Part shown: in pieces, positions 2,172-55,344 of the stretch
Layout: each line of letters opens with the position of its first letter
Position numbering within the stretch: the stretch's first letter is position 1
NCBI GenBank assembly: GCA_035604955.1
Contig: DATNHM010000034.1
Coordinates: 10,889 to 74,888 of the forward strand
Reading direction: 5' to 3'
Origin: Candidatus Limnocylindrales bacterium
Lineage (GTDB): Bacteria > Verrucomicrobiota > Verrucomicrobiia > Limisphaerales > UBA11358
DNA: 64,000 nucleotides
Position numbers and translations under genes: made by a program
The notes under the pieces: model-generated
Seen by the model: only the letters and a program-made list of their open reading frames with translations
Databases searched by the model: none
Told to the model about the DNA's origin: nothing

Positions 2172-3302
2172 TCAACGCGCAATCCAACCGCCGCCGAGGA
2201 CCAAATCGTCCTGGTAAAACACCGCCGCCTGGCCAGGGGTGATGGCCCGCTGGGCGGAATGCAGTTTTACCCCCACCGAACCGTTGCCTGTTGGTGTCAC
2301 CGTGGCCGGTGTGCCGGGATGGTTGTAACGGATTTTCGTCATAACCTCGATGGGCTCCGTCAACTTGTCGAACGGAATCCAGTTGCAGTTCGTCGCGGTG
2401 AATTCGTCACGATCGAGCGCGGATTCGTCGCCGACGACGACGCGATTGTTTTCCACGTCCAGCTCGACGACATAGACCGGCTTCGGTGTCGTGATGCCGA
2501 GCCCTTTGCGCTGGCCAATGGTGTAAAATTCGATGCCGTCGTGGTGACCAAGGACCGTTCCGTGCAAATCTACAATATCGCCGCGATGCTTTTGCGCGAG
2601 GCCAGCCTGCTGAAGGAAGCCACCGTAATTATTGTCCGGTACGAAACAGATTTCCATGCTCTCCGCCTTGTCGGCGGTCTTGAGCTGACAATGCCGCGCC
2701 ACTGCGCGCGTGTCGCTTTTGGTCTTCTCGCCGAGCGGAAACAGCGCTCGCGCCAATTGGTCCTGACGCAGCGAAAACAGGAAATAACTCTGGTCCTTCT
2801 TCAAATCCCGTCCGCGCTTGAGTAAATAACGCCCCTCACCTGCCTTCGCCACCCTCTCCCCGCCCAGCGGGGAGAGGGACGGGGCGAGGGGCCGTTCAAT
2901 CCTTGCAAAATGGCCGGTGGCGATGTAATCCGCGCCGAGCTGCTTCGCCCGGTCAATCAACCTGCCAAACTTGAGATTCTGGTTGCACATCACGCACGGA
3001 TTGGGCGTGCGGCCGGCTTTGTATTCGTCGGCGAAGTATTGAATGACGTGCTTCTGGAATTCTGCCGCCTCATCAATGAGGTAGTATGGAATGTCGAGTT
3101 TATGGCAGACGGCGCGGGCGTCGGTGACGGCCTGCGGGCCGCAGCACTTGTCCTCCGCGCGGTTCACGCAATCCTGTGGCCAGAGTTTCAGCGTGATGCC
3201 GATGACCTCGTAGCCCTGTTCGAGCAACAGCGCCGCCGTGGCAGATGAGTCCACTCCCCCGCTCATGCCACAGACGACGCGCTGGCGCTTTTGCGAATTC
3301 AC
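2172..3302 (-). CDS. mnmA: tRNA 2-thiouridine(34) synthase MnmA
   Basis: Motifs: PP-loop VVCGMSGGVDSS, TPNPCVMCN, ATGHFAR, KDQSYFLF, C-terminal GQAAVFY. Start is GTG at 3302 (in-frame TAA four codons upstream, no in-frame ATG before the PP-loop). It carries an in-frame repeat insertion at 2831-2893. Confidence 0.92.
   Translation of the reverse strand: MNSQKRQRVVCGMSGGVDSSATAALLLEQGYEVIGITLKLWPQDCVNRAEDKCCGPQAVTDARAVCHKLDIPYYLIDEAAEFQKHVIQYFADEYKAGRTPNPCVMCNQNLKFGRLIDRAKQLGADYIATGHFARIERPLAPSLSPLGGERVAKAGEGRYLLKRGRDLKKDQSYFLFSLRQDQLARALFPLGEKTKSDTRAVARHCQLKTADKAESMEICFVPDNNYGGFLQQAGLAQKHRGDIVDLHGTVLGHHDGIEFYTIGQRKGLGITTPKPVYVVELDVENNRVVVGDESALDRDEFTATNCNWIPFDKLTEPIEVMTKIRYNHPGTPATVTPTGNGSVGVKLHSAQRAITPGQAAVFYQDDLVLGGGWIAR
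2831..2893. repeat. nested palindromic micro-element inserted in frame in mnmA (family A: CCCTCTCCCC-loop-GGGGAGAGGG + CGGGGYGAGGG)
   Basis: gcccctcacc tgccttcgcc a CCCTCTCCCC gcccagc GGGGAGAGGG a cggggcgagggg c: a perfect 10-bp inner stem, with outer arms GCCCCTCACC / GGcGAGGGGC. It is translated (minus strand) as PLAPSLSPLGGERVAKAGEG. Related copies lie at 39539-39576 and 54617-54684. Confidence 0.75.
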
Positions 3303-19148: not shown

Positions 19149-20381
19149 ATGCCGGATTCAAAAGCAACACGCGTCTCCAGCCTCTATCTGCATGTGCCGT
19201 TCTGCGCGCAGAAATGCGCGTACTGCGCCTTTTATTCGGAGCCTTCAACCGGCGATCTGATTAATCGGTATATCGCCGTGCTCGTGCATGAGCTGGAGAT
19301 CGTGGCGGATGATCTCCGGCCGGAAACAATCTTCTTCGGTGGCGGCACACCGTCGCTGCTTAACCTTCGCCAGTGGGAACAAATCCTTCGGGCCATGGAA
19401 CGGCTGAATCTGCTCGGGGCAGCGGAATTCACCGTTGAATGCAATCCGGCCACCGTTTCGGCGGACAAAGCCAAATTACTCCGAGACTTCGGCGTCAATC
19501 GCATTTCGATGGGTGTGCAATCCCTCGACGAGGCCTTGCTCAACCGCCTGGGCCGGGTTCATTCGCGGGAGATGGTCTTCAAATCGTTCGACATCCTGCG
19601 CCGGGCCGGTTTTGACAATCTCAACCTCGACCTCATGTTTGCCATTCCCGGCCAGACCCTGGAAGTCTGGCGTGCCACTTTGACCGAGGCGCTCGCGCTC
19701 GGTAGCGAGCATTTGTCCAGTTATGAAGTCATCTACGAGGACGATACGCCGCTGTTTGCGCAATTAAAAGCCGGCGAATTCGACGTGGACGAAGATTTGG
19801 CCTGCGCGATGTATGAAGAACTCGTTGACGGCGCAACCGCCGCCGGTTTCCGGCAATACGAGATTGCCAACTTTGCACGTGGATCGAAGTCCAATACGTC
19901 CACAGTCCAGAGTCTACAGTCCGTGCCCGAAGGTGGCATGACTGAGGACTGTGGACTGACGACTGTGGACATCCCCGCCTTTGCCTGCCGCCACAACGTG
20001 AATTATTGGCGTGGCGGTTCGTTTTACGGCCTGGGTCCCAGCGCGACGAGCTATGTGCGCGGCGTTCGGACGAAAAATTGGGCCAACACGCAGCTTTACT
20101 GCGAGCAGTTGGGAAAAGGAAACCGCGCCATCGAATCCCGCGAAGAACTGCCGCCGTTGAGACGCGCCGGGGAAACCGCCGCGTTCGGTCTGCGGATGGT
20201 CGCCGGCTGGCCGTTTGAAGAATTTCAACGTACGACAAATTTTGACCTGCGCCGCGAATGGTCGGCGGACATGAATCAACTGGCGGATCGCGGCTGGGCA
20301 AAGATTTCGCCGGACCGCTTTCACCTCACGCCCCGGGGGTTGCGTTTCGCGGATGCCGCGGCAGAAATGTTCCTTCGTTGA
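19149..20381 (+). CDS. hemW: radical-SAM HemN-like protein / heme chaperone HemW
   Basis: Contains LYLHVPFCAQKCAYCAF (CxxxCxxC), GGGTPS and a HNVNYW motif. It carries a repeat insertion of about 30 aa at 19890-19972. Confidence 0.85.
   Translation: MPDSKATRVSSLYLHVPFCAQKCAYCAFYSEPSTGDLINRYIAVLVHELEIVADDLRPETIFFGGGTPSLLNLRQWEQILRAMERLNLLGAAEFTVECNPATVSADKAKLLRDFGVNRISMGVQSLDEALLNRLGRVHSREMVFKSFDILRRAGFDNLNLDLMFAIPGQTLEVWRATLTEALALGSEHLSSYEVIYEDDTPLFAQLKAGEFDVDEDLACAMYEELVDGATAAGFRQYEIANFARGSKSNTSTVQSLQSVPEGGMTEDCGLTTVDIPAFACRHNVNYWRGGSFYGLGPSATSYVRGVRTKNWANTQLYCEQLGKGNRAIESREELPPLRRAGETAAFGLRMVAGWPFEEFQRTTNFDLRREWSADMNQLADRGWAKISPDRFHLTPRGLRFADAAAEMFLR
19890..19972. repeat. GTCCACAGTCC / GGACTGTGGAC inverted-repeat element inserted in frame in hemW
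   Basis: GTCCACAGTCC (19898-19908) and GTCTACAGTCC (19912-19922) face GGACTGTGGAC (19946-19956) and GACTGTGGAC (19961-19970). The 11-bp arms are exact reverse complements. The element is translated as NTSTVQSLQSVPEGGMTEDCGLTTVD. Confidence 0.7.
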
Positions 20382-20389
20382 GCTTTTCT

Positions 20390-20482
20390 GGTAGGGCAGA
20401 GCTGCCGCTCTGCCCTAATCCCGTCCCCGGCAAGGATGGGGAACGAGTGAAAGTCGAGGCGGCGCAGCAGCGCCGCCCTACC
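20390..20482. repeat. composite GGTAGGG...CCCTACC palindromic element (family B) between convergent hemW and kinase genes
   Basis: GGTAGGGCAGAGC-tgcc-GCTCTGCCCTA (20390-20417), TCCCC..GGGGA (20424-20442) and GGCGGCGC-agca-GCGCCGCC-CTACC (20458-20482). The outer arms are GGTAGGG / CCCTACC. Confidence 0.7.
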
Positions 20483-20488
20483 TTGGAG

Positions 20489-21940
20489 TCAACCGAGTGG
20501 TAACCGGACGGTGAAAGTGGACCCGACATTTTCCCTGCTTGAAACTTCGATGGTCCCACCATGCGCTTCGACAATCGCCTTCGAAATCGCCAGTCCCAGC
20601 CCGGCGTTACCATTGGAGGTTGTTCGTGATTTGTCGCCCCGATAAAATCGCTCAAACACGTGGGGCAGATCCTCACCGGAAATTCCCGGCCCCGTGTCGC
20701 TGACCGTCAACACGGCGAGCCCGGCCGAGGCTTCCAATTTGACGCGAACTTCGCCGCCCGGCCGGTTGTATTGAATGGCATTAACCAACAAGTTGGTAAT
20801 GACCAGCGCCAAACGTTCGGCATCGCCGATGATTTCAACCGGGGCCAGCCCGGTCAGGATATTCACATTACGCTGACTGGCAATGGGTTTCATTTGTTCG
20901 GCACACTCGTTTACCGTTTCGGCCAGATTAAAGCACAACCGTTTCAGGGTTTCCTGGCCCGTGTCGAGCCGTGCCAGTTCCAGCAATGATTCAATCAAGC
21001 GACGCATCCGCTGGGCCGAACGCTGGCAGGCTTCGATCGTCTCGCGATATTCGGCCGGGCTGCGCTCGCGGTTTAAGGCGGTCTGGGTTTGCGTCAGTAC
21101 CACCGAAACCGGTGTGCGCAATTCATGCGCAGCATCGGCGGTGAATTGTTGTTGCTGGGCAAACGCGGTTTCCAGCCGGGCAAAAGTGGAGTTTAAAACA
21201 CTGGCCAACCGGCCCAGCTCGCTTTCGGTTTCGGCGACGTTGATGCGTTGCGTCAGGTCGCCGGCGGAAATCTTCACGGCGGCGGCGCTGATGCCGTCAA
21301 TCGGTCGGAGAGCGCGCCCCACCAGCCACCCGCCGCCGACAAGGCCAACCAGCAAAATAGCCGTACCGACAGCGGTGAGCCGCCAGGCCGTCAGCCGAAG
21401 ATCCTTCAATTCCGGCGCCAGACTGCGACCGACTGTGATTTGTTCGCCCAGTGGGAATGTGCTATGAATTTCGCGAAAACCGTCCAAGGTCCGCACGTCG
21501 ACGGGCTCGGCAGCTTTCATTGCAGTCATGTGCGTTGGCACGGCACCCTCCCGGGCGATTTCATCGCCATATCGTGACCAAACGACATAATAAAAATTCT
21601 GACCGTCATTCGTACCAAAAAAATGTTCGGCCCAAGCCGACAGTTGGAACTGATTCGTTGGTCGCGGCAGTTCGTTGTCAAGTCCGGCCCCCATGGGAGG
21701 GCCTTCCGGGGGCCGGTCCGGTGGTGGTGGACCGAAACCGGGCCTGTGGGGCGGTGGATGAAGTGCGTCAGTAATGAGATGCAGGCGCATGTTCAACTCA
21801 TCGTCCACCTTGCGAAGCACCCGCCCTCGCTCAAGTTGATACGCCGTGAAACCAAACCCCGCCAGCACAACCACCAGGATAAGACCGTACCAGAGTTGCA
21901 ATCGCCACTTGATGGATTTGAAAATCTTCATTCGATGCAA
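20489..21940 (-). CDS. sensor histidine kinase (two TM, HAMP, HisKA, HATPase_c)
   Basis: H-box ADAAHELRTPVSV; N, G1 and G2 boxes (LLVNAIQYN, DTGPGI, GLGLAI). The periplasmic region is Pro-rich. Confidence 0.9.
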   Translation of the reverse strand: MHRMKIFKSIKWRLQLWYGLILVVVLAGFGFTAYQLERGRVLRKVDDELNMRLHLITDALHPPPHRPGFGPPPPDRPPEGPPMGAGLDNELPRPTNQFQLSAWAEHFFGTNDGQNFYYVVWSRYGDEIAREGAVPTHMTAMKAAEPVDVRTLDGFREIHSTFPLGEQITVGRSLAPELKDLRLTAWRLTAVGTAILLVGLVGGGWLVGRALRPIDGISAAAVKISAGDLTQRINVAETESELGRLASVLNSTFARLETAFAQQQQFTADAAHELRTPVSVVLTQTQTALNRERSPAEYRETIEACQRSAQRMRRLIESLLELARLDTGQETLKRLCFNLAETVNECAEQMKPIASQRNVNILTGLAPVEIIGDAERLALVITNLLVNAIQYNRPGGEVRVKLEASAGLAVLTVSDTGPGISGEDLPHVFERFYRGDKSRTTSNGNAGLGLAISKAIVEAHGGTIEVSSRENVGSTFTVRLPLG

Positions 21941-39034: not shown

Positions 39035-40096
39035 ATGGCCGGACTCCTCGACGAAATTGAGCCTCTGAAGCAGGCTGCGCTGGCCGAATTGAAATCCGCC
39101 GCCGATCTTGCCGCGCTTGAACAAAGCAAAGGCGCATGGATCGGACCGCACGGGAAGTTCACTGCGCTCATGAAACAGCTCGGCACGCTGTCGAAGGAGG
39201 AAAAACCCGCCGCCGGCAAGGCCATCAACGCCGCCAAGGTCGAACTTGAAGCCGCGCTGGCTTCTCGCCGTGAAGAATTGGAATTGAAAGCCGCGCTGCC
39301 CAGGGAACCGACCGATTTCAGCGCACCCGGTCGCCGCCGTGCCCTCGGCAAGTTGCATCCGCTCACGCAAGTGACCGAGGATATTGTCCGCAGCTTCCGC
39401 AAAATCGGGTTCGTCGTCGCCGACGGCCCCGAAATCGAGGACGAATATCATTGCTTTGACGCGCTCAACACGCCTGCCGACCATCCCGCCCGCGACACGC
39501 AGGACACGTTCTATCTTGCAAACGGCGCAGCGAATGTTTCTCCCTCTCCTGGGGGAGAGGGCCGGGGTGAGGGCGGTCGTCAACCACTGTTGCTCCGCAC
39601 TCACACTTCGTCCGTCCAAATCCGCGTGATGGAAAAGCAACCGCCGCCCATCCGCATTATCGTGCCGGGCCGCGTCTATCGTCGCGACAACGCCGACGCC
39701 ACGCACAATCCGACGTTCCAGCAAATCGAAGGACTCTATGTGGACAAAAACGTCACCGTCAGCGACCTCAAGGGCACGGTGGAATTTGTTTTCAAGGAAC
39801 TGCTCGGCGAGGAAACCAAGATCCGGTTCCGCCCCCATTATTTCAGTTACACCGAGCCGAGCTTTGAGATTGATTTCAGCAACGCCCTCGTGAAAAGACT
39901 GGGCAAGGACTGGCTGGAAATCGCCGGGTGCGGCATGGTGCATCCGGAGGTGTTCGAGAACGTTGGTTACGACCCGGAAATCTGGACCGGCTGGGCCTTC
40001 GGCTTCGGCATCGAACGCATCGCCATGATCCGCTACGGCATCAACGACATCCGCCTTTTTTACGAGAATGACGTGAGGTTTTTGAAACAATTTTAA
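39035..40096 (+). CDS. pheS: phenylalanine--tRNA ligase alpha subunit
   Basis: HPARDTQDTFY, LLRTHTSSVQIR, class II motifs (FRPHYFSYTEPSFEID, GCGMVHPEV, AFGFGIERIAM). It carries the repeat insertion at 39539-39576. Confidence 0.93.
   Translation: MAGLLDEIEPLKQAALAELKSAADLAALEQSKGAWIGPHGKFTALMKQLGTLSKEEKPAAGKAINAAKVELEAALASRREELELKAALPREPTDFSAPGRRRALGKLHPLTQVTEDIVRSFRKIGFVVADGPEIEDEYHCFDALNTPADHPARDTQDTFYLANGAANVSPSPGGEGRGEGGRQPLLLRTHTSSVQIRVMEKQPPPIRIIVPGRVYRRDNADATHNPTFQQIEGLYVDKNVTVSDLKGTVEFVFKELLGEETKIRFRPHYFSYTEPSFEIDFSNALVKRLGKDWLEIAGCGMVHPEVFENVGYDPEIWTGWAFGFGIERIAMIRYGINDIRLFYENDVRFLKQF
39539..39576. repeat. family A palindromic micro-element inserted in frame in pheS
   Basis: tCCCTCTCC-tggg-GGAGAGGG-CCGGGGTGAGGGCgg is translated as SPSPGGEGRGEGG. 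It lies between the conserved DTFY and LLRTHTS motifs. Confidence 0.7.
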
Positions 40097-40912: not shown

Positions 40913-43456
40913 ATGAAAGTCACCTTTAACTGGCTTAAACAGTACGTCGATTTTGACTTGTCGCCCGAGGAATTGACCGAGCGGCTCACCATGCTCGGCC
41001 TCGAAGCCGAGAGCGTCCACAAGATCGGCGGCAAATTCGAAGGCATCGTCATCGCTCAAATCCTCACCAAGGACAAGGTTCCTTCCTCGGACAAATTGAC
41101 GGTCTGCAAGGTCAACGACGGCAAGGGCGAGCGCATTATCATTTGTGGCGCGCAGAACCACAACGTCGGCGACAAAGTCCCGCTGATCCTGCCAAACTTC
41201 GCGCTGCCGCTGAAACCCGGCGAAAAGGAGCCGTTCGTCATCAAGGAACGGAAAGTCTTCGGCATCACCAGCCACGGCATGATGTGTTCGCCGCAGGAAC
41301 TTGGTCTGCCGGACAAGGTGGACGGTCTGCTCATCCTGCCCCAGGACGCGCCGATTGGAAAATCGTTCGCCGAATACCTCGGCCGTGCCGGAGGCGACGT
41401 GGTTTACGATTTGGAAATCACGCCGAACCGGCCGGATTGGAACAGCGTCATTGGCATCGCCCGCGAAATCGCAGCCGTGACGGGGAATAAGCTGAAAATG
41501 CCGGATGTTTCGGAGGGCGGAGCTCTGCGACGCCCTGACTCAACGGAGAAATCAGGGGCTCATGGAACTCGCCCCTCCGAAAATGTCAGTGACCTTGTGT
41601 CGGTGAGAATTGAAGATGCTGAGCTTTGCCCGCGTTACACGGCGCGCGTTGTAAAGGGTTTGAAGATTGGTCCCAGCCCGAATTGGCTCCGGACCACCCT
41701 GGAGAAGGTGGGAATTCGGAGCATCAACAACGTCGTGGACGTGACGAATTACGTCATGTTGGAAATAGGCCAGCCGCTCCACGCGTTTGACTATCATCTC
41801 ATCGCCAAAGGCAAGGATGGCAAACCAACTATCGTCGTCCGCCGCGCGAGCGAAAAAGAAAAATTCAAAACGCTGGACAATGTTGAGCGCACGCTGACGG
41901 ACGAAATGCTGCTGATTGCCGACGAGCAAAAAGGCATCGCGCTGGCTGGTGTCATGGGGGGGCAGAACACAGAAATCAACGAAAAGACCGTGGATGTGCT
42001 CATCGAGAGTGCCTGTTTCTCGCCGACGAACATCCGGCGCACCAGCAAAGCGCTTGGTCTGCGCAGCGAATCGTCCTATCGCTTCGAACGCGGCGCGGAC
42101 ATCGGCATTTCCGATTGGGCGAGCCAGCGTTGCGTGCAACTGATTCTCGAAACCGCCGGCGGCCAGCTTGCGGAAGGCGTCGTGGATGCGTATCCGAAAC
42201 CGGCCGAACCGAAGCAGGTGACTTTGCGCCATCACAAGGTCAATGAATTGCTCGGCATCGAATTGAAGCCGGAAGAGTGTGAATTTTATCTCGGACAACT
42301 CGGGCTGAAAATGGTCAATCGCAAGGCGCGGCCCGTTGGTGAGGGTGGTCCGCCGGAGCCGGCCACATTCCAGATTCCCACCTTCCGCGTGGATCTCAAA
42401 CGCGAGGTGGATTTGATTGAGGAAATCGCCCGATTGCACGGCGTCGAAAAGATTCCCGCCACGCCGCCGCGCGGCGCGATTGGCGCGAATGAATTTGATT
42501 CCGTTCACGACCAGATTGATGAAGCCCGCCGGATTTTGAGCGGTCTGGGATTGTACGAGGCGCAGGGACAGACGCTGATTGCGAAGTCAGAGGTCAGAAG
42601 TCAGAAGTCAGAAGAAATCCTGGCGCTGGCGAATCCTTTGAGCAGCGACATGGATGTGTTGCGACCGAGTTTGTTACCGGGGTTGATTCATTCATTGCGC
42701 CACAACGTCAGCCGGAAGAACTACGACGTGGCGCTGTTTGAGATTGGAAGGGTGTTTGCGCAAGGTAGGGACGCATCGCCGAAGCGTCCGGACAGCGCAG
42801 CGCGCTGTCCCCACCAGGAAGAACGCCGTGTGGCTATTGCGCTCACCGGTCAACGCGCCCTGCCCTTCTGGAGCGGTGACGAACGCGACGCCAGATTTGA
42901 TGCTTTTGATTTGAAAGGCGTCGTCGAGGAATTCCTGGAACAATTCGGCGTCCGCGGCGTGTCGTTCGGCAAAAGCACTGAAAGCACGGCGTTATTTCTC
43001 GAATCCGCGACAATCGCACTCGGCGGCAAGCTACCACTCGGGGACATGGGCCAACTCTCGCCGGTCCTGGCCAAAAGGTACGATTTGCGGGACGCAGTTT
43101 TTCTCGCGGAGTTGAGTCTCGATCAACTGTTGGCACGAAGAAATCCGGTGAAGTCGTTCAAGCTGTTGCCGCAATTTCCAGCGATTCGCCGCGACGTGGC
43201 GATGATTGTGCCGGAAACGACAACGCACGACGCCGTGCTGCAAACCGTCAAACAAGCCAGGCCGGCGAATCTTGAAGGCGTCGAATTGTTCGACGTTTTT
43301 CACGGGAAAAATGTTCCGGAAGGGCAAAAAAGCCTGGCTTACGCCTTCACCTATCGTTCACCGGAAAAAACTTTGACCGATGCCGAAGTCAACGCGGCGC
43401 ACTCGAAAGTTGTGGCAGCCTTCAAAACGCAATTGAAGGCAACGGTACGTGAGTAA
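40913..43456 (+). CDS. pheT: phenylalanine--tRNA ligase beta subunit
   Basis: MKVTFNWLKQYVD start, with tRNA-binding, B3/4, B5, FDX-ACB and C-terminal domains recognisable. It contains three repeat insertions (41512-41578, 42586-42613, 42764-42815). Confidence 0.93.
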   Translation: MKVTFNWLKQYVDFDLSPEELTERLTMLGLEAESVHKIGGKFEGIVIAQILTKDKVPSSDKLTVCKVNDGKGERIIICGAQNHNVGDKVPLILPNFALPLKPGEKEPFVIKERKVFGITSHGMMCSPQELGLPDKVDGLLILPQDAPIGKSFAEYLGRAGGDVVYDLEITPNRPDWNSVIGIAREIAAVTGNKLKMPDVSEGGALRRPDSTEKSGAHGTRPSENVSDLVSVRIEDAELCPRYTARVVKGLKIGPSPNWLRTTLEKVGIRSINNVVDVTNYVMLEIGQPLHAFDYHLIAKGKDGKPTIVVRRASEKEKFKTLDNVERTLTDEMLLIADEQKGIALAGVMGGQNTEINEKTVDVLIESACFSPTNIRRTSKALGLRSESSYRFERGADIGISDWASQRCVQLILETAGGQLAEGVVDAYPKPAEPKQVTLRHHKVNELLGIELKPEECEFYLGQLGLKMVNRKARPVGEGGPPEPATFQIPTFRVDLKREVDLIEEIARLHGVEKIPATPPRGAIGANEFDSVHDQIDEARRILSGLGLYEAQGQTLIAKSEVRSQKSEEILALANPLSSDMDVLRPSLLPGLIHSLRHNVSRKNYDVALFEIGRVFAQGRDASPKRPDSAARCPHQEERRVAIALTGQRALPFWSGDERDARFDAFDLKGVVEEFLEQFGVRGVSFGKSTESTALFLESATIALGGKLPLGDMGQLSPVLAKRYDLRDAVFLAELSLDQLLARRNPVKSFKLLPQFPAIRRDVAMIVPETTTHDAVLQTVKQARPANLEGVELFDVFHGKNVPEGQKSLAYAFTYRSPEKTLTDAEVNAAHSKVVAAFKTQLKATVRE
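41512..41578. repeat. nested palindromic element inserted in frame in pheT
   Basis: GGAGGGCG ... CCCTGA-ctcaacggagaaa-TCAGGG ... CGCCCCTCC is translated as EGGALRRPDSTEKSGAHGTRPS. Confidence 0.6.
42586..42613. repeat. tandem heptamer array GTCAGA(G/A) x4 inside pheT
   Basis: gtcagag gtcagaa gtcagaa gtcagaa is translated as (K)SEVRSQKSEE. Confidence 0.65.
42764..42815. repeat. family B (GGTAGGG...CCCCACC) double-hairpin element inserted in frame in pheT
   Basis: GGTAGGGACGC-atcgccgaa-GCGTCC and GGACAGCGC-agc-GCGCTGTCC-CCACC are translated as GRDASPKRPDSAARCPHQ. Confidence 0.7.
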
Positions 43457-53728: not shown

Positions 53729-55240
53729 TCAGGAATTAATTTCGCGTTCTCCGGCGTGGACAACGAGCGAAGCCGGAACTTTCATTTGCAAAGCCGCCAG
53801 AAAGCCGGCGGCTTTGGCCAGCGTTTCTTCGTATTCCGCTTGAGGGCTGGAATCGGCCACAATACCGGCGCCCACGTTGAAATGCGCGAAGCCATCTTTG
53901 CAAACCGCCGTGCGGATGGTAATGCTCAACTGGCTTTCGCGGTTGAAACCCAAGTAGCCGTGGCAACCGCAGTAAGGCCCGCGCGCAATCGGTTCCAGCT
54001 CGTCAATGATTTCCATGGCGCGAAATTTCGGCGCGCCGGTGATGCTGCCGCCGGGAAAACACGAAGCCAGCGCGGCGAAATGCGTCACGTCATGCCGCAA
54101 TCGGCCTTCGACCGTGGAGACCAGATGTTGCACCTGGGCGAATTTTTCGAGTTTGGCCAGCTCGGGCACTTGAATTGAGCCGAATTCGCAAACCTTGCCG
54201 AGATCGTTGCGCAACAAATCGGTGATCATGATCAACTCGGCGAGTTCCTTGGCGCTGGTCTGGAGTTCGTAGGCAAGTTGCGCGTCGCGGGTCGAGTCGG
54301 GGTCGCGCGGGCGCGTGCCCTTGATCGGCTTCGTCTGAATATGCGAACCGCTCAGGCGTAAAAACAATTCCGGTGACGACGACGCGATTTGAAAGCGGCA
54401 GTGCCGCCTCCCATCATCACAATCGAGAAACGCAGAAAACGGCGCAGGTGAAACGGAATTCAATCGCTCGAATAATTCCCAACCGGACAAATCGCATGGG
54501 ACCGTAAGCCGTTGCGAGAGGTTGACCTGATAAATGTCGCCGGCACGGATGTAACGCTGGGCGCGTTCGACGGTAGCGATGAACTCCGCGCGAGATATAT
54601 TGGAAGTGACGAAACCCGCACCCCGGCCCTCGCCCATCGGATGGGAGAGGGTCGTCCCGTCAGGGCGGGACCGGGTGAGGGCTCGTTTCCAAAATTCCAC
54701 CTGTTCCCGCGCCCGTTTTTCGCTGCGCGAACCGTCGGCGTTGAGACCGGTGGATATGATGCACACCTTGCCGAGCTGGTGGTCGAAAACTACCAGGCTG
54801 TCATAGAAACCAACGTGGCCATCGGGCAATTCCAGGTCGTTGGCGGCGCGGCGCGGGAGTTTCGGCTCAGTAAAATTTTTCAAATCGTAACCCCAGTAAC
54901 CGAAACAGCCGCCCAGCGGAAACGGCAGGTCAACCTCGTCCAACAGCTCAAACCGCGCCATCAGTGCATCCAACACCTGCCAAGGGTTGCCAAACTGGAC
55001 GTAGCCGCCGTTGTCAAACGGCGGAACTGTCCGCGAATTCACATTCGCGGCCACAATTTCACAGCGCGAGCCGGTCGAGCGGAAGGTGAAAAATGGATTC
55101 GCCGCAACCAACGAATAGCGTGCGGATGGCAAATCAAACGCCGCCGTGCGCAGCAGGACAATCCCCGCGGCGCCGTGCAGAGTTTCGACCAGCGATTCCG
55201 GCGTGTGGGCCGTGGCGATTTCCAGAATCAGCGGGCGCAT
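53729..55240 (-). CDS. pabB: aminodeoxychorismate synthase component I (chorismate-binding enzyme)
   Basis: The C-terminal chorismate-binding domain carries SSPELFLR, GTRPR, ITGAPK, GPYCGCHGYLG and IRT. ATG at 55240. A repeat insertion lies at 54617-54684. Anthranilate synthase TrpE cannot be excluded without a search. Confidence 0.8.
   Translation of the reverse strand: MRPLILEIATAHTPESLVETLHGAAGIVLLRTAAFDLPSARYSLVAANPFFTFRSTGSRCEIVAANVNSRTVPPFDNGGYVQFGNPWQVLDALMARFELLDEVDLPFPLGGCFGYWGYDLKNFTEPKLPRRAANDLELPDGHVGFYDSLVVFDHQLGKVCIISTGLNADGSRSEKRAREQVEFWKRALTRSRPDGTTLSHPMGEGRGAGFVTSNISRAEFIATVERAQRYIRAGDIYQVNLSQRLTVPCDLSGWELFERLNSVSPAPFSAFLDCDDGRRHCRFQIASSSPELFLRLSGSHIQTKPIKGTRPRDPDSTRDAQLAYELQTSAKELAELIMITDLLRNDLGKVCEFGSIQVPELAKLEKFAQVQHLVSTVEGRLRHDVTHFAALASCFPGGSITGAPKFRAMEIIDELEPIARGPYCGCHGYLGFNRESQLSITIRTAVCKDGFAHFNVGAGIVADSSPQAEYEETLAKAAGFLAALQMKVPASLVVHAGEREINS
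54617..54684. repeat. family A variant palindromic element inserted in frame in pabB
   Basis: CACCCCGG CCCTCGCCCATC g GATGGGAGAGGG tc GTCCCG tcaggg CGGGAC CGGGTGAGGGC is translated (minus strand) as ALTRSRPDGTTLSHPMGEGRGAG. Confidence 0.6.
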
Positions 55241-55250
55241 TGTCCAAAAG

Positions 55251-55344
55251 GATGATTGGACGATTGGACCGATGGATAAATGGACGAATGGACGCCGGCG
55301 CGGTCCCGCTTCTCCACCAATCCATAAATCCATAAATCCATAAA
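55251..55344. repeat. two 8-nt-period tandem arrays upstream of pabB
   Basis: gatgattg gacgattg gaccgatg gataaatg gacgaatg gacg (55251-55294) and tccataaa x3 (55321-55344). Confidence 0.6.

Follow-up and report, generated by a model that had tools for sequence, protein, structure and literature searches.

We analyzed a 64,000-nucleotide (nt) window of contig DATNHM010000034.1 from an uncultured verrucomicrobium (assembly GCA_035604955.1), and within it a palindromic DNA segment that lies inside mnmA, the gene for tRNA 2-thiouridine(34) synthase. At this site the MnmA protein reads ATGHFAR-IERPLAPSLSPLGGERVAKAGEGRY-LLKRGRDLKKDQSYFL. The original prediction, made from the DNA letters with no database search, had read the ATGHFAR motif, taken the spacing between ATGHYVR and LLRG in E. 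coli MnmA as about nine residues, and proposed that roughly 15–20 codons were extra. All of this is borne out: the E. coli spacing is nine residues (RADVDGKSR), and alignment to the E. coli structure (PDB 2DER) places 17 gap residues (15, then 2) within PLAPSLSPLGGERVAKAGEG. The insert lengthens the loop by about 15 residues, with 60–63 nt standing in place of ∼5–6 ancestral codons, at the tip of a short hydrophilic loop directly after the ATGH motif. As set out below, the segment is probably a tolerated, translated copy of a dispersed BoxC-type repeat.

The extra codons are formed by a nested palindrome, again as predicted. Its 12-nt inner arms (2852–2863 and 2867–2878) are fully complementary, and its outer arms (2831–2840 and 2883–2892) are complementary at nine of ten positions. 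The location first given for it (2831–2893) was right and the extent was not, the repeat unit proper being the 60 nt listed in Table 1. On the coding strand this unit consists of a C2 block (CCCCTCGCC), the linker CCGT, a C1 block (CCCTCTCCCC), the loop GCTGGGC, a G1 block (GGGGAGAGGG), a spacer (TGGCGAAGGCAG) and a G2 block (GTGAGGGG), in the compact symmetric order C2, C1, loop, G1, spacer, G2. Folded with programs that allow Watson-Crick and G-U pairs only, the palindrome reaches −51.9 kcal/mol as RNA (z = −4.3, equalled by 1 of 200 shuffles) and −28.5 kcal/mol as DNA (z = −5.4, equalled by none of 200). A fold scan of the plus strand in 80-nt windows with a step of 8 nt ranks it as the strongest hairpin of the window, followed by inserts in pabB and hemW that are described below. 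Five of the six reading frames across the copy are free of stop codons, and Rfam at gathering thresholds matched no family anywhere in the window.

Comparison with relatives identifies the segment as an insertion. We examined mnmA in 80 species-level genomes of Verrucomicrobiota (of the Limisphaerales, Pedosphaera or ‘subdivision 3’ kind) whose MnmA proteins are 71–89% identical to that of the window. The loop is only 8–12 residues long, typically IEKSADGSRY, in 52 of these species, and in the remaining 28 an insert is present at exactly this loop. Since the 52 include all of the distant relatives, those relatives carry no conserved segment of matching length; nine close relatives (82–87% identical) are empty as well, and the gap in the ortholog alignment coincides with the palindrome. 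The open reading frame (ORF) is intact through the site in all 80 species (28 filled, 52 empty, none broken), and every filled allele carries an insert whose length is a multiple of three and which contains no stop codon. The claim that a repeat had been inserted in frame is therefore upheld by the empty sites in close relatives, together with the further copies found in the window and in other genomes.

Filled alleles occur next to empty ones in several separate clades (L072 by L061 and L065; L042 by L038; L025 and L037 by L043; L019, L012, L017 and L027 by L021), from which it follows that filling of the loop took place on more than one occasion. Neighbors were judged here by nucleotide-identity comparison, a neighbor-joining tree of 175 masked MnmA proteins being too poorly resolved for counts of gains and losses. 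Outside the loop, the ∼340 remaining residues have an identical length in 152 of these 175 orthologs, and no repeat-sized insertion was found elsewhere in MnmA among them. A miniature inverted-repeat transposable element would have terminal inverted repeats and a target-site duplication; here the outer arms are complementary at nine of ten positions, no consistent direct repeat borders the insert when filled and empty sites are compared, and ancestral loop codons are replaced, not duplicated. Limisphaerales-type MnmA sequences (73–87% identical to that of the window) are also encoded on ten contigs titled after unrelated organisms, among them Akkermansia muciniphila, Bifidobacteriaceae, Pseudomonadales and Sulfotelmatobacter; these look like bins with a wrong label.

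The same 60-nt unit occupies the same mnmA site in orthologs L281–L285, and the copy is common to many metagenomic orthologs that are 84–94% identical to the window MnmA, a sharing that we attribute to vertical inheritance. The 120 closest metagenome proteins fall in that same range of identity except for two, at 72% and 78% across their full length, which are the proteins with the two longest composite inserts.

The element is, judged by its block sequence, a member of the family named in turn BoxC, PIT and TM_ECO, rather than of a new one. Its record in E. coli goes back to the 1990s (Bachellier et al., 1990s; Hoyne/Maher 2000; Holder et al. 2015, PMC4666352), and Holder et al. define its motif as CCCTCNCCC-N3–6-GGGNGAGGG-N3-GGGNGAGGG with at most one stem mismatch. 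In their analysis the motif has 23 copies in E. coli MG1655, all of them intergenic, and 3610 copies across 262 proteobacterial genomes (PMC4666352). A single strand of it forms a purine-motif triplex in vitro, as seen by circular dichroism and nuclear magnetic resonance; the triplex was not detected in double-stranded DNA or in vivo (PMC4666352). PIT elements in E. coli displayed neither promoter nor terminator activity, no transposase or integrase remnants accompany the E. coli sites, and the motif loci are unusually variable between strains, with TM loci tied to local genomic instability (PMC4666352).

On the plus strand the mnmA copy fits this published pattern at positions 2852–2890, as CCCTCTCCC-(CGCCCAGCG)-GGGAGAGGG-ACG-GGGCGAGGG. 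Under strict 9-nt stems its first loop measures 9 nt, the actual stem being 12 bp with a 3-nt loop. The second spacer, 3 nt in the motif, measures 12–21 nt on the opposite strand of the mnmA copy and in the pabB copy; in many copies elsewhere this longer spacer is a small hairpin whose two sides vary together (TGGCCGAAGGCCG, TGCCCGAAGGGCG, TGTCCGAAGGACG). Because the mnmA copy contains a fourth, C-rich block, both of its strands carry the C-G-G motif and the whole unit becomes a nested palindrome. The initial description of a ‘hairpin repeat’ was thus correct about the hairpin and incomplete about the repeat, which is the C-G-G three-block motif of BoxC/PIT/TM in a symmetric four-block form. 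The copy in pheS (CCCTCTCCTGGGGGAGAGGGCCGGGGTGAGGGC) is identical to E. coli TM_ECO no. 1 (CCCTCTCCCTGTGGGAGAGGGCCGGGGTGAGGGC) at 32 of 34 positions. This comparison relies on the E. coli sequences printed in PMC4666352 (Table 1 of that paper) because a blastn search of E. coli genomes with the mnmA copy yielded only partial matches (E = 2–7, in unannotated DNA), a weak result probably due to low-complexity filtering. All three copies in the window lie inside ORFs identified at the family level, rather than between genes; intergenic location is a described habit of the BoxC family and is outside its sequence definition.

A search of the window with the three-block pattern CCCTCNCC-N3–11-GGNGAGGG-N2–32-GGNGAGGG matched at three loci, namely in pheS, in pabB and, on either strand, in mnmA; none of 100 shuffles matched. 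The same element type does therefore recur in pheS and pabB, as had been claimed. The alignment of PheS to PDB structures breaks at query residues 162–185, where E. coli-type PheS has four residues. The PabB-like protein aligns to E. coli PabB (PDB 1K0E) with E = 1e-81, and the insert coincides with alignment gaps; the real start codon of this ORF may lie further inside. The pattern match in pabB spans 54627–54681, and this copy is inverted relative to that in mnmA with respect to the coding strand. Similar peptides had been expected from opposite orientations of a palindrome, and they are seen: PLAPSLSPLGGER..GEG in mnmA and ALT..TLSHPMGEGRGAG in the inverted pabB copy.

Insertions had also been proposed in hemW and pheT, for a total of seven in five genes. 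The five genes stand; we verified six insertions, and the seventh was not found. Those in hemW (one) and pheT (two) are palindromic and lie within genes, as stated, and are not the same element, since they belong to repeat families other than that of mnmA. The NCBIfam match to HemW ends at residue 245, just ahead of the insert, and both pheT inserts are in frame and coincide with gaps relative to solved PheT structures.

Table 1. Repeat insertions of the window and the genes that hold them.
Feature	Coordinates	Strand	Evidence or sequence
mnmA, tRNA 2-thiouridine(34) synthase, 376 amino acids (aa)	2172..3302	-	NCBIfam NF001138, 438.6 bits (cutoff 284); PDB 2DER, E = 2e-75
60-nt four-block BoxC/TM-type repeat inside mnmA	2832..2891	-	encodes PLAPSLSPLGGERVAKAGEG
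Inner perfect 12-bp stem with 3-nt loop (C1/G1 blocks) of mnmA copy	2852..2878		0 of 100 shuffles match
hemW	19149..20381	+	
hemW insert	19898..19970	+	arms GTCCACAGTCC...GGACTGTGGAC; DNA fold z = -3.9; encodes ..STVQSLQSVPEGGMTEDCGLTTVD..
pheS, host of second copy	39035..40096	+	TIGR00468, 346 bits (cutoff 237)
Short three-block BoxC/TM copy in pheS	39542..39573	+	CCCTCTCC-TGGG-GGAGAGGG-CCG-GGGTGAGGG; encodes ..SPSPGGEGRGEGG..
pheT	40913..43456	+	
First pheT insert	41508..41582	+	arms TTTCGGAGGGCG / CGCCCCTCCGAAA
Second pheT insert	42765..42814	+	doublet of two small hairpins with GTAG start: GTAGGGACGC..GCGTCC then GGACAGCGC..GCGCTGTCC-CCAC
pabB-like chorismate-utilising enzyme, host of third copy	53729..55333	-	TIGR00553, 330.2 bits (cutoff 328.4)
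Four-block BoxC/TM copy in pabB	54615..54684	-	one spacer holds a 21-nt hairpin; encodes ALTRSRPDGTTLSHPMGEGRGA

Two further hairpins of the window are worth recording. One, at 20392–20417 and preceded by GTAG (G-GTAGGGCAGAGC-TGCC-GCTCTGCCCTA), is intergenic and starts 11 nt past the hemW stop codon, downstream of a gene, which is the usual position of a repetitive extragenic palindrome (REP). The other, at 21681–21760, lies within a histidine-kinase ORF (20489–21940, minus strand), is the fourth-strongest 80-nt hairpin of the window (−43.6 kcal/mol) and encodes a proline-rich stretch, HPPPHRPGFGPPPPDRPPEGPPMGAG; it may be a candidate for the seventh insertion of the original prediction.

Comparison of filled orthologs indicates which properties of the insert are maintained. 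Seven orthologs carry a BoxC-type insert at the mnmA site, six of 60 nt and one of 63 nt. The peptide is not conserved among them and drifts freely, even by internal +1/−1 frame changes: L281 encodes PLTPSLSPSDGERVAKPGEG (..SPSDGERVAKP..) and L285 encodes ALTPSLSHPMGEGGRRSGEG (..SHPMGEGGRRS..) from the same 60-nt DNA apart from small indels. Compared with L281, both inner arms of L285 are shorter by one base and its spacer is longer by two; its reading frame shifts within the insert and is back in register by the end of it. As the peptide is unconserved and the frame is always restored, selection acts on length modulo three. The two arms also change in a coordinated manner. In L284 a T:A pair of the inner stem has become G:C and CTC/GAG of the outer stem has become ATC/GAT, and the right half is now the exact complement of the left half; in L283 each inner arm is one base longer. 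These two-arm changes were read directly from the seven mnmA-site copies, a set too small, and too misaligned by internal indels, for formal covariation statistics.

The motif is dispersed well beyond this lineage. When one genome of each species was scanned with CCCTCTCCCC-N3–9-GGGGAGAGGG-N6–30-GGTGAGGGG and exact arms, at least 120 stretches matched, and among the matches listed are Verrucomicrobiota, Planctomycetota, Acidobacteriota, Alpha-, Gamma- and Deltaproteobacteria, Rokubacteria/Methylomirabilota, Omnitrophota and others. A second scan, with at least 120 matching stretches, used a pattern that is the reverse complement of the ordinary three-block motif and so gains breadth, not four-block specificity; the matches listed for it add Enterobacteriaceae, Pseudomonas/Stutzerimonas, Dyella, rhizobia and Bradyrhizobium. 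Betaproteobacteria are also present among the matches listed in the two exact-arm scans.

Within 1.83 Mb made up of the window and the surroundings of mnmA and pheS in its relatives, we count ∼25 distinct copies (35 strand-hits); leaving aside the mnmA and pheS sites, ∼5 loci lie within long ORFs of high GC content at third codon positions (GC3) and ∼6 are intergenic. Pfam matches place further copies inside recognizable genes. One copy sits in the stretch covered by a protein kinase domain (Pkinase), another lies in HrpB between its DEAD domain and its Helicase_C domain, a third belongs to the N-terminal domain of a TrpE/PabB enzyme, a fourth is located in a planctomycete GlnE, and a fifth comes just past the matched domain part of a metallophosphoesterase from an Omnitrophota metagenome-assembled genome (MAG). 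One other match (L156) is probably not a genic case and represents an intergenic copy within an open frame that spans two genes. The element is also well suited to coding DNA: the three C-rich frames are open in 90–94% of 134 copies elsewhere, compared with 55% for random sequence of the same composition. In the MAG JACRJY01, two inverted BoxC/TM copies lie ∼100 bp apart (L080 5008–5140 and L261 271–403) within long high-GC3 open frames of 556 and 810 codons, which are putative genes.

The MnmA loop has received other repeats as well. Among the 120 closest proteins and the 80 genomes we distinguish at least 12 unrelated insert types at this same loop. They include the BoxC type (PLTPSLSPSDGERVAKPGEG), peptides of the forms GAPASCR..RRQDAGAP, GSADVSSAS..GRRDASAP, GAPSAGSAS..AELVLGAP, VGVQASAC..TLKRELQ, GTSRCDV..TAQRAVPT, SSRREEA..SLLTSAAT, GQASSLS..DRQDACPT, GRADLPV..ARQRVPT, DLNNKETKEQSSSLLRSFVV and AAVPAA..AAGTAAL, and several types of single occurrence. 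These families were counted by eye, since clustering by shared 11-mers merged unrelated ones through a composite insert (that of L286) and through shared halves of GTAG REPs. Every insert is a strong DNA hairpin (−34 to −100 kcal/mol, compared with about −5 to −22 kcal/mol for empty sites), and several have the form of inverted doublets with GTAG...CTAC at their ends. Such REP doublets, of a kind described by Di Nocera et al. and named REPINs by Bertels and Rainey, are found at the mnmA loop in seven orthologs. Because sister lineages have the loop either empty or filled by other palindromic repeats, it is a recurrent insertion site.

The composite L286 (2001–3392; protein P0058, 463 aa) has 112 residues between ATGHFAR and LLKRG, ∼100 above an empty loop. 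Other repeats, ∼260 nt in all, interrupt its BoxC copy; they include a further BoxC copy with a GTAG REP in its own spacer, and the ORF is still open. The PheS loop between DTF(Y) and LRTHTS behaves likewise: across 80 species it ranges from 8 residues when empty (LNTTDKRL) to as many as 44 when filled, and in many of them it contains BoxC-type inserts, inserts of a VGQASRLSQ..ETGATPVLL type, or tandem or nested inserts (tandem or adjacent repeats occur in L205 and L240). Every pheS insert recovered has a length that is a multiple of three and no stop codon. A prefix ‘EFSP’ or ‘EFTP’ directly precedes several unrelated MnmA-loop inserts (eight sequences), which suggests that one repeat has been exchanged for another with the flank of the earlier insertion left behind.

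We propose the following account of the mnmA segment. A G/C-rich dispersed repeat, built from a C-rich block, the G-rich block complementary to it and one more G-rich block, and foldable as a single strand into a purine-motif triplex, would be present within the gene as a copy that is translated as ∼20 residues of loop, tolerated by MnmA and doing nothing for it. The gene would stay open because the insert has a length divisible by three and only one of its six frames contains a stop codon. Arm complementarity would be kept by arm-to-arm copying (template switching in quasi-palindromes) or by conversion from other copies in the genome. The element would then be selfish, a term that we base on comparative data, and its insert presumably neutral for the enzyme.

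Several observations weigh against this account. Translation of the insert is deduced from comparative data, and mobility of the element from its presence and absence among relatives. No consistent target-site duplication was found across the compared pairs of filled and empty mnmA alleles, and to our knowledge no transposase has been associated with BoxC. The loop is likely to be surface-exposed given its natural length variation and its composition; an AlphaFold2 model of MnmA (26 homologs, all at least 84% identical; mean predicted local distance difference test score 48) is too poor to show loop exposure. The 120 protein matches were collected by shared words, and orthologs with the same insert are over-represented among them. 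Finally, the arms are nearly perfect even though the insertion spans lineages that differ by 6–15% in protein sequence. This would be unexpected for purely neutral DNA and implies a force acting on the structure of the DNA or RNA, so that a function is conceivable.

That last point leads to the main rival explanation, in which a stable hairpin or triplex-prone stretch is itself selected at this position of mnmA and pheS, and any repeat that supplies one is retained. Such a structure might make the ribosome pause between folding units, determine the half-life of the mRNA, or stall replication and promote local variation. The coordinated two-sided changes that keep the arms complementary would be expected under such selection, as would the occurrence of unrelated palindromes, all with folds of −34 to −100 kcal/mol, at the same loop in many lineages; Holder et al. 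moreover tie TM loci to local genomic instability (PMC4666352). However, the structure is absent in 52 of the 80 species, close relatives included, where the empty site folds at about −5 to −22 kcal/mol. The same repeats also occur between genes and within unrelated genes, nested pile-ups of the L286 kind resemble accumulated junk rather than a tuned element, and PIT elements in E. coli are without promoter or terminator activity. We therefore regard selection for the structure as unlikely, though it is the alternative we take most seriously.

The remaining explanations appear less probable still. An insert present in the DNA could be missing from the mature protein, through removal from the mRNA or through ribosome skipping comparable to programmed translational bypassing, and a very stable hairpin encoding an unconstrained peptide is what such a mechanism might look like. 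A skipped segment would have no need, however, to be stop-free and a multiple of three in length, as all 28 filled mnmA alleles and all recovered pheS inserts are, nor for internal frame changes to be compensated always within the insert, and we consider this very improbable. An ordinary lineage-specific extension of the MnmA loop that is palindromic by chance, and is not repeat DNA, draws on the natural variation of empty loops from 8 to 12 residues; it is contradicted by the same three-block DNA motif in pheS and pabB (none of 100 shuffles), by the presence of the motif in many phyla and by close relatives without the insert, and we give it slightly less credence again. An assembly artefact or chimera, conceivable for an uncultured organism and for GC-rich palindromes that are hard to sequence, is the least credible of all, because the same 60-nt insert is found at the identical codon in independent assemblies from JGI, ENA and NCBI.

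The preferred reading, of a tolerated and translated BoxC-type copy, has some wider implications. For ∼30 years BoxC/PIT has been without a known function or means of spread and has been treated as intergenic; the family is far wider than the catalogue of 262 proteobacterial genomes suggests, and it is a further source of protein-loop insertions besides the palindromic elements of Rickettsia and REPs. Low-complexity peptides such as SPxxGERxxxxGEG mislead gene callers, alignments and homology searches in genomes of the Planctomycetes-Verrucomicrobia-Chlamydiae group, Acidobacteriota and Proteobacteria. The most interesting part, in our opinion, is the insertion hot spot that many families share in the loops of MnmA and PheS, which lies outside the coordinates of the original prediction. 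It amounts to a natural experiment, with dozens of independent events of filling, emptying and replacement at one codon-scale site of mnmA and of pheS, from which the borders, orientation bias and rate of insertion could be deduced, with a view to discriminating between transposition, template switching and conversion.

We tentatively suggest, as a possibility on which we would not rely, that the short loops of MnmA (after ATGH) and PheS (after DTF(Y)) in Limisphaerales-like Verrucomicrobiota are landing pads hit repeatedly and independently by at least 12 unrelated palindromic families (BoxC/triplex motifs, GTAG REP doublets and others), which nest within and replace one another, always in frame. 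The concentration of sites might then reflect structure-directed insertion, at hairpins or stalled replication forks, and not only tolerance by the protein, and BoxC/PIT might truly move from one phylum to another and continually supply new protein loops. In the open-access full text that we searched, we found no description of BoxC/PIT motifs translated within coding sequence, of the compact four-block form with a hairpin spacer, or of many repeat families sharing or exchanging one codon-scale site in essential genes.

The palindromic elements of Rickettsia (RPEs) are the classic case of in-frame palindromic repeats, and we know of no report of many RPE families at one codon position. RPEs resemble the window element in being in-frame palindromic repeats of housekeeping genes whose added peptide is tolerated, with both genic and intergenic copies; the likeness is one of behavior, namely in-frame insertion into an intact ORF, and not of membership. 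The hosts differ, Rickettsia being an obligate intracellular alphaproteobacterium with a small genome and the window host a free-living soil or peat bacterium. Di Nocera et al. 2013 (PMC3733652, citing Ogata et al. 2000, 2002) class RPE-4 and RPE-6 as REPs with a CGTC tag. The mnmA copy was considered as a REP or REPIN and rejected: it has no GTAG, and the CGTC that precedes its inner stem is not conserved, the linker at that position varying among family members (CCGT, CCTT, CTGT, CCGG, CCAG).

The original prediction knew of no description of such elements for this lineage, but in-frame palindromic repeats have been reported in the phylum. In the same 2013 report, GTAG REPs are placed in frame within genes of the verrucomicrobium Opitutus terrae, for example those of the helicase HrpA and uvrA, and ‘terrae’ appears 70 times in the table of intragenic REPs (PMC3733652); such repeats are therefore not new for the phylum. 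The two cases share the phylum and the insertion of palindromic repeats in frame into genes of known function, and repeats of the Opitutus terrae kind are represented by the GTAG...CTAC doublets in the mnmA loops of relatives and in the pheT gene of the window. The window mnmA element differs in that it lacks a GTAG tag and comes from a different repeat family. Within the available part of the supplementary files, including the table of intragenic REPs, neither mnmA nor pheS is named, and the portions accessible do not describe several families at one site (PMC3733652).

REPINs, which are mobilized by REP-associated tyrosine transposases (RAYTs), are described as extragenic (Bertels and Rainey 2011, PMC3116915), which distinguishes them from the copies considered here. 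The likeness lies in the inverted doublets of short palindromes, the long hairpin, the vertical inheritance and the long persistence; no RAYT link is known for BoxC-type elements. The closest comparison remains with BoxC/PIT/TM itself. The window copies lie in frame within genes (three of three) whereas those of E. coli MG1655 are intergenic (23 of 23), the mnmA and pabB copies take a compact four-block form with two inverted motifs around one hairpin, one spacer is 12–21 nt long and often a small hairpin instead of 3 nt, and the host phylum is Verrucomicrobiota where the counts of Holder et al. concern proteobacterial genomes. Shared between them are the same three blocks (CCCTCNCCC, GGGNGAGGG, GGGNGAGGG), a dispersed, multi-copy distribution with inverted (‘palindromic’) arrangements, the lack of an associated transposase, and loci that are unusually variable between relatives.

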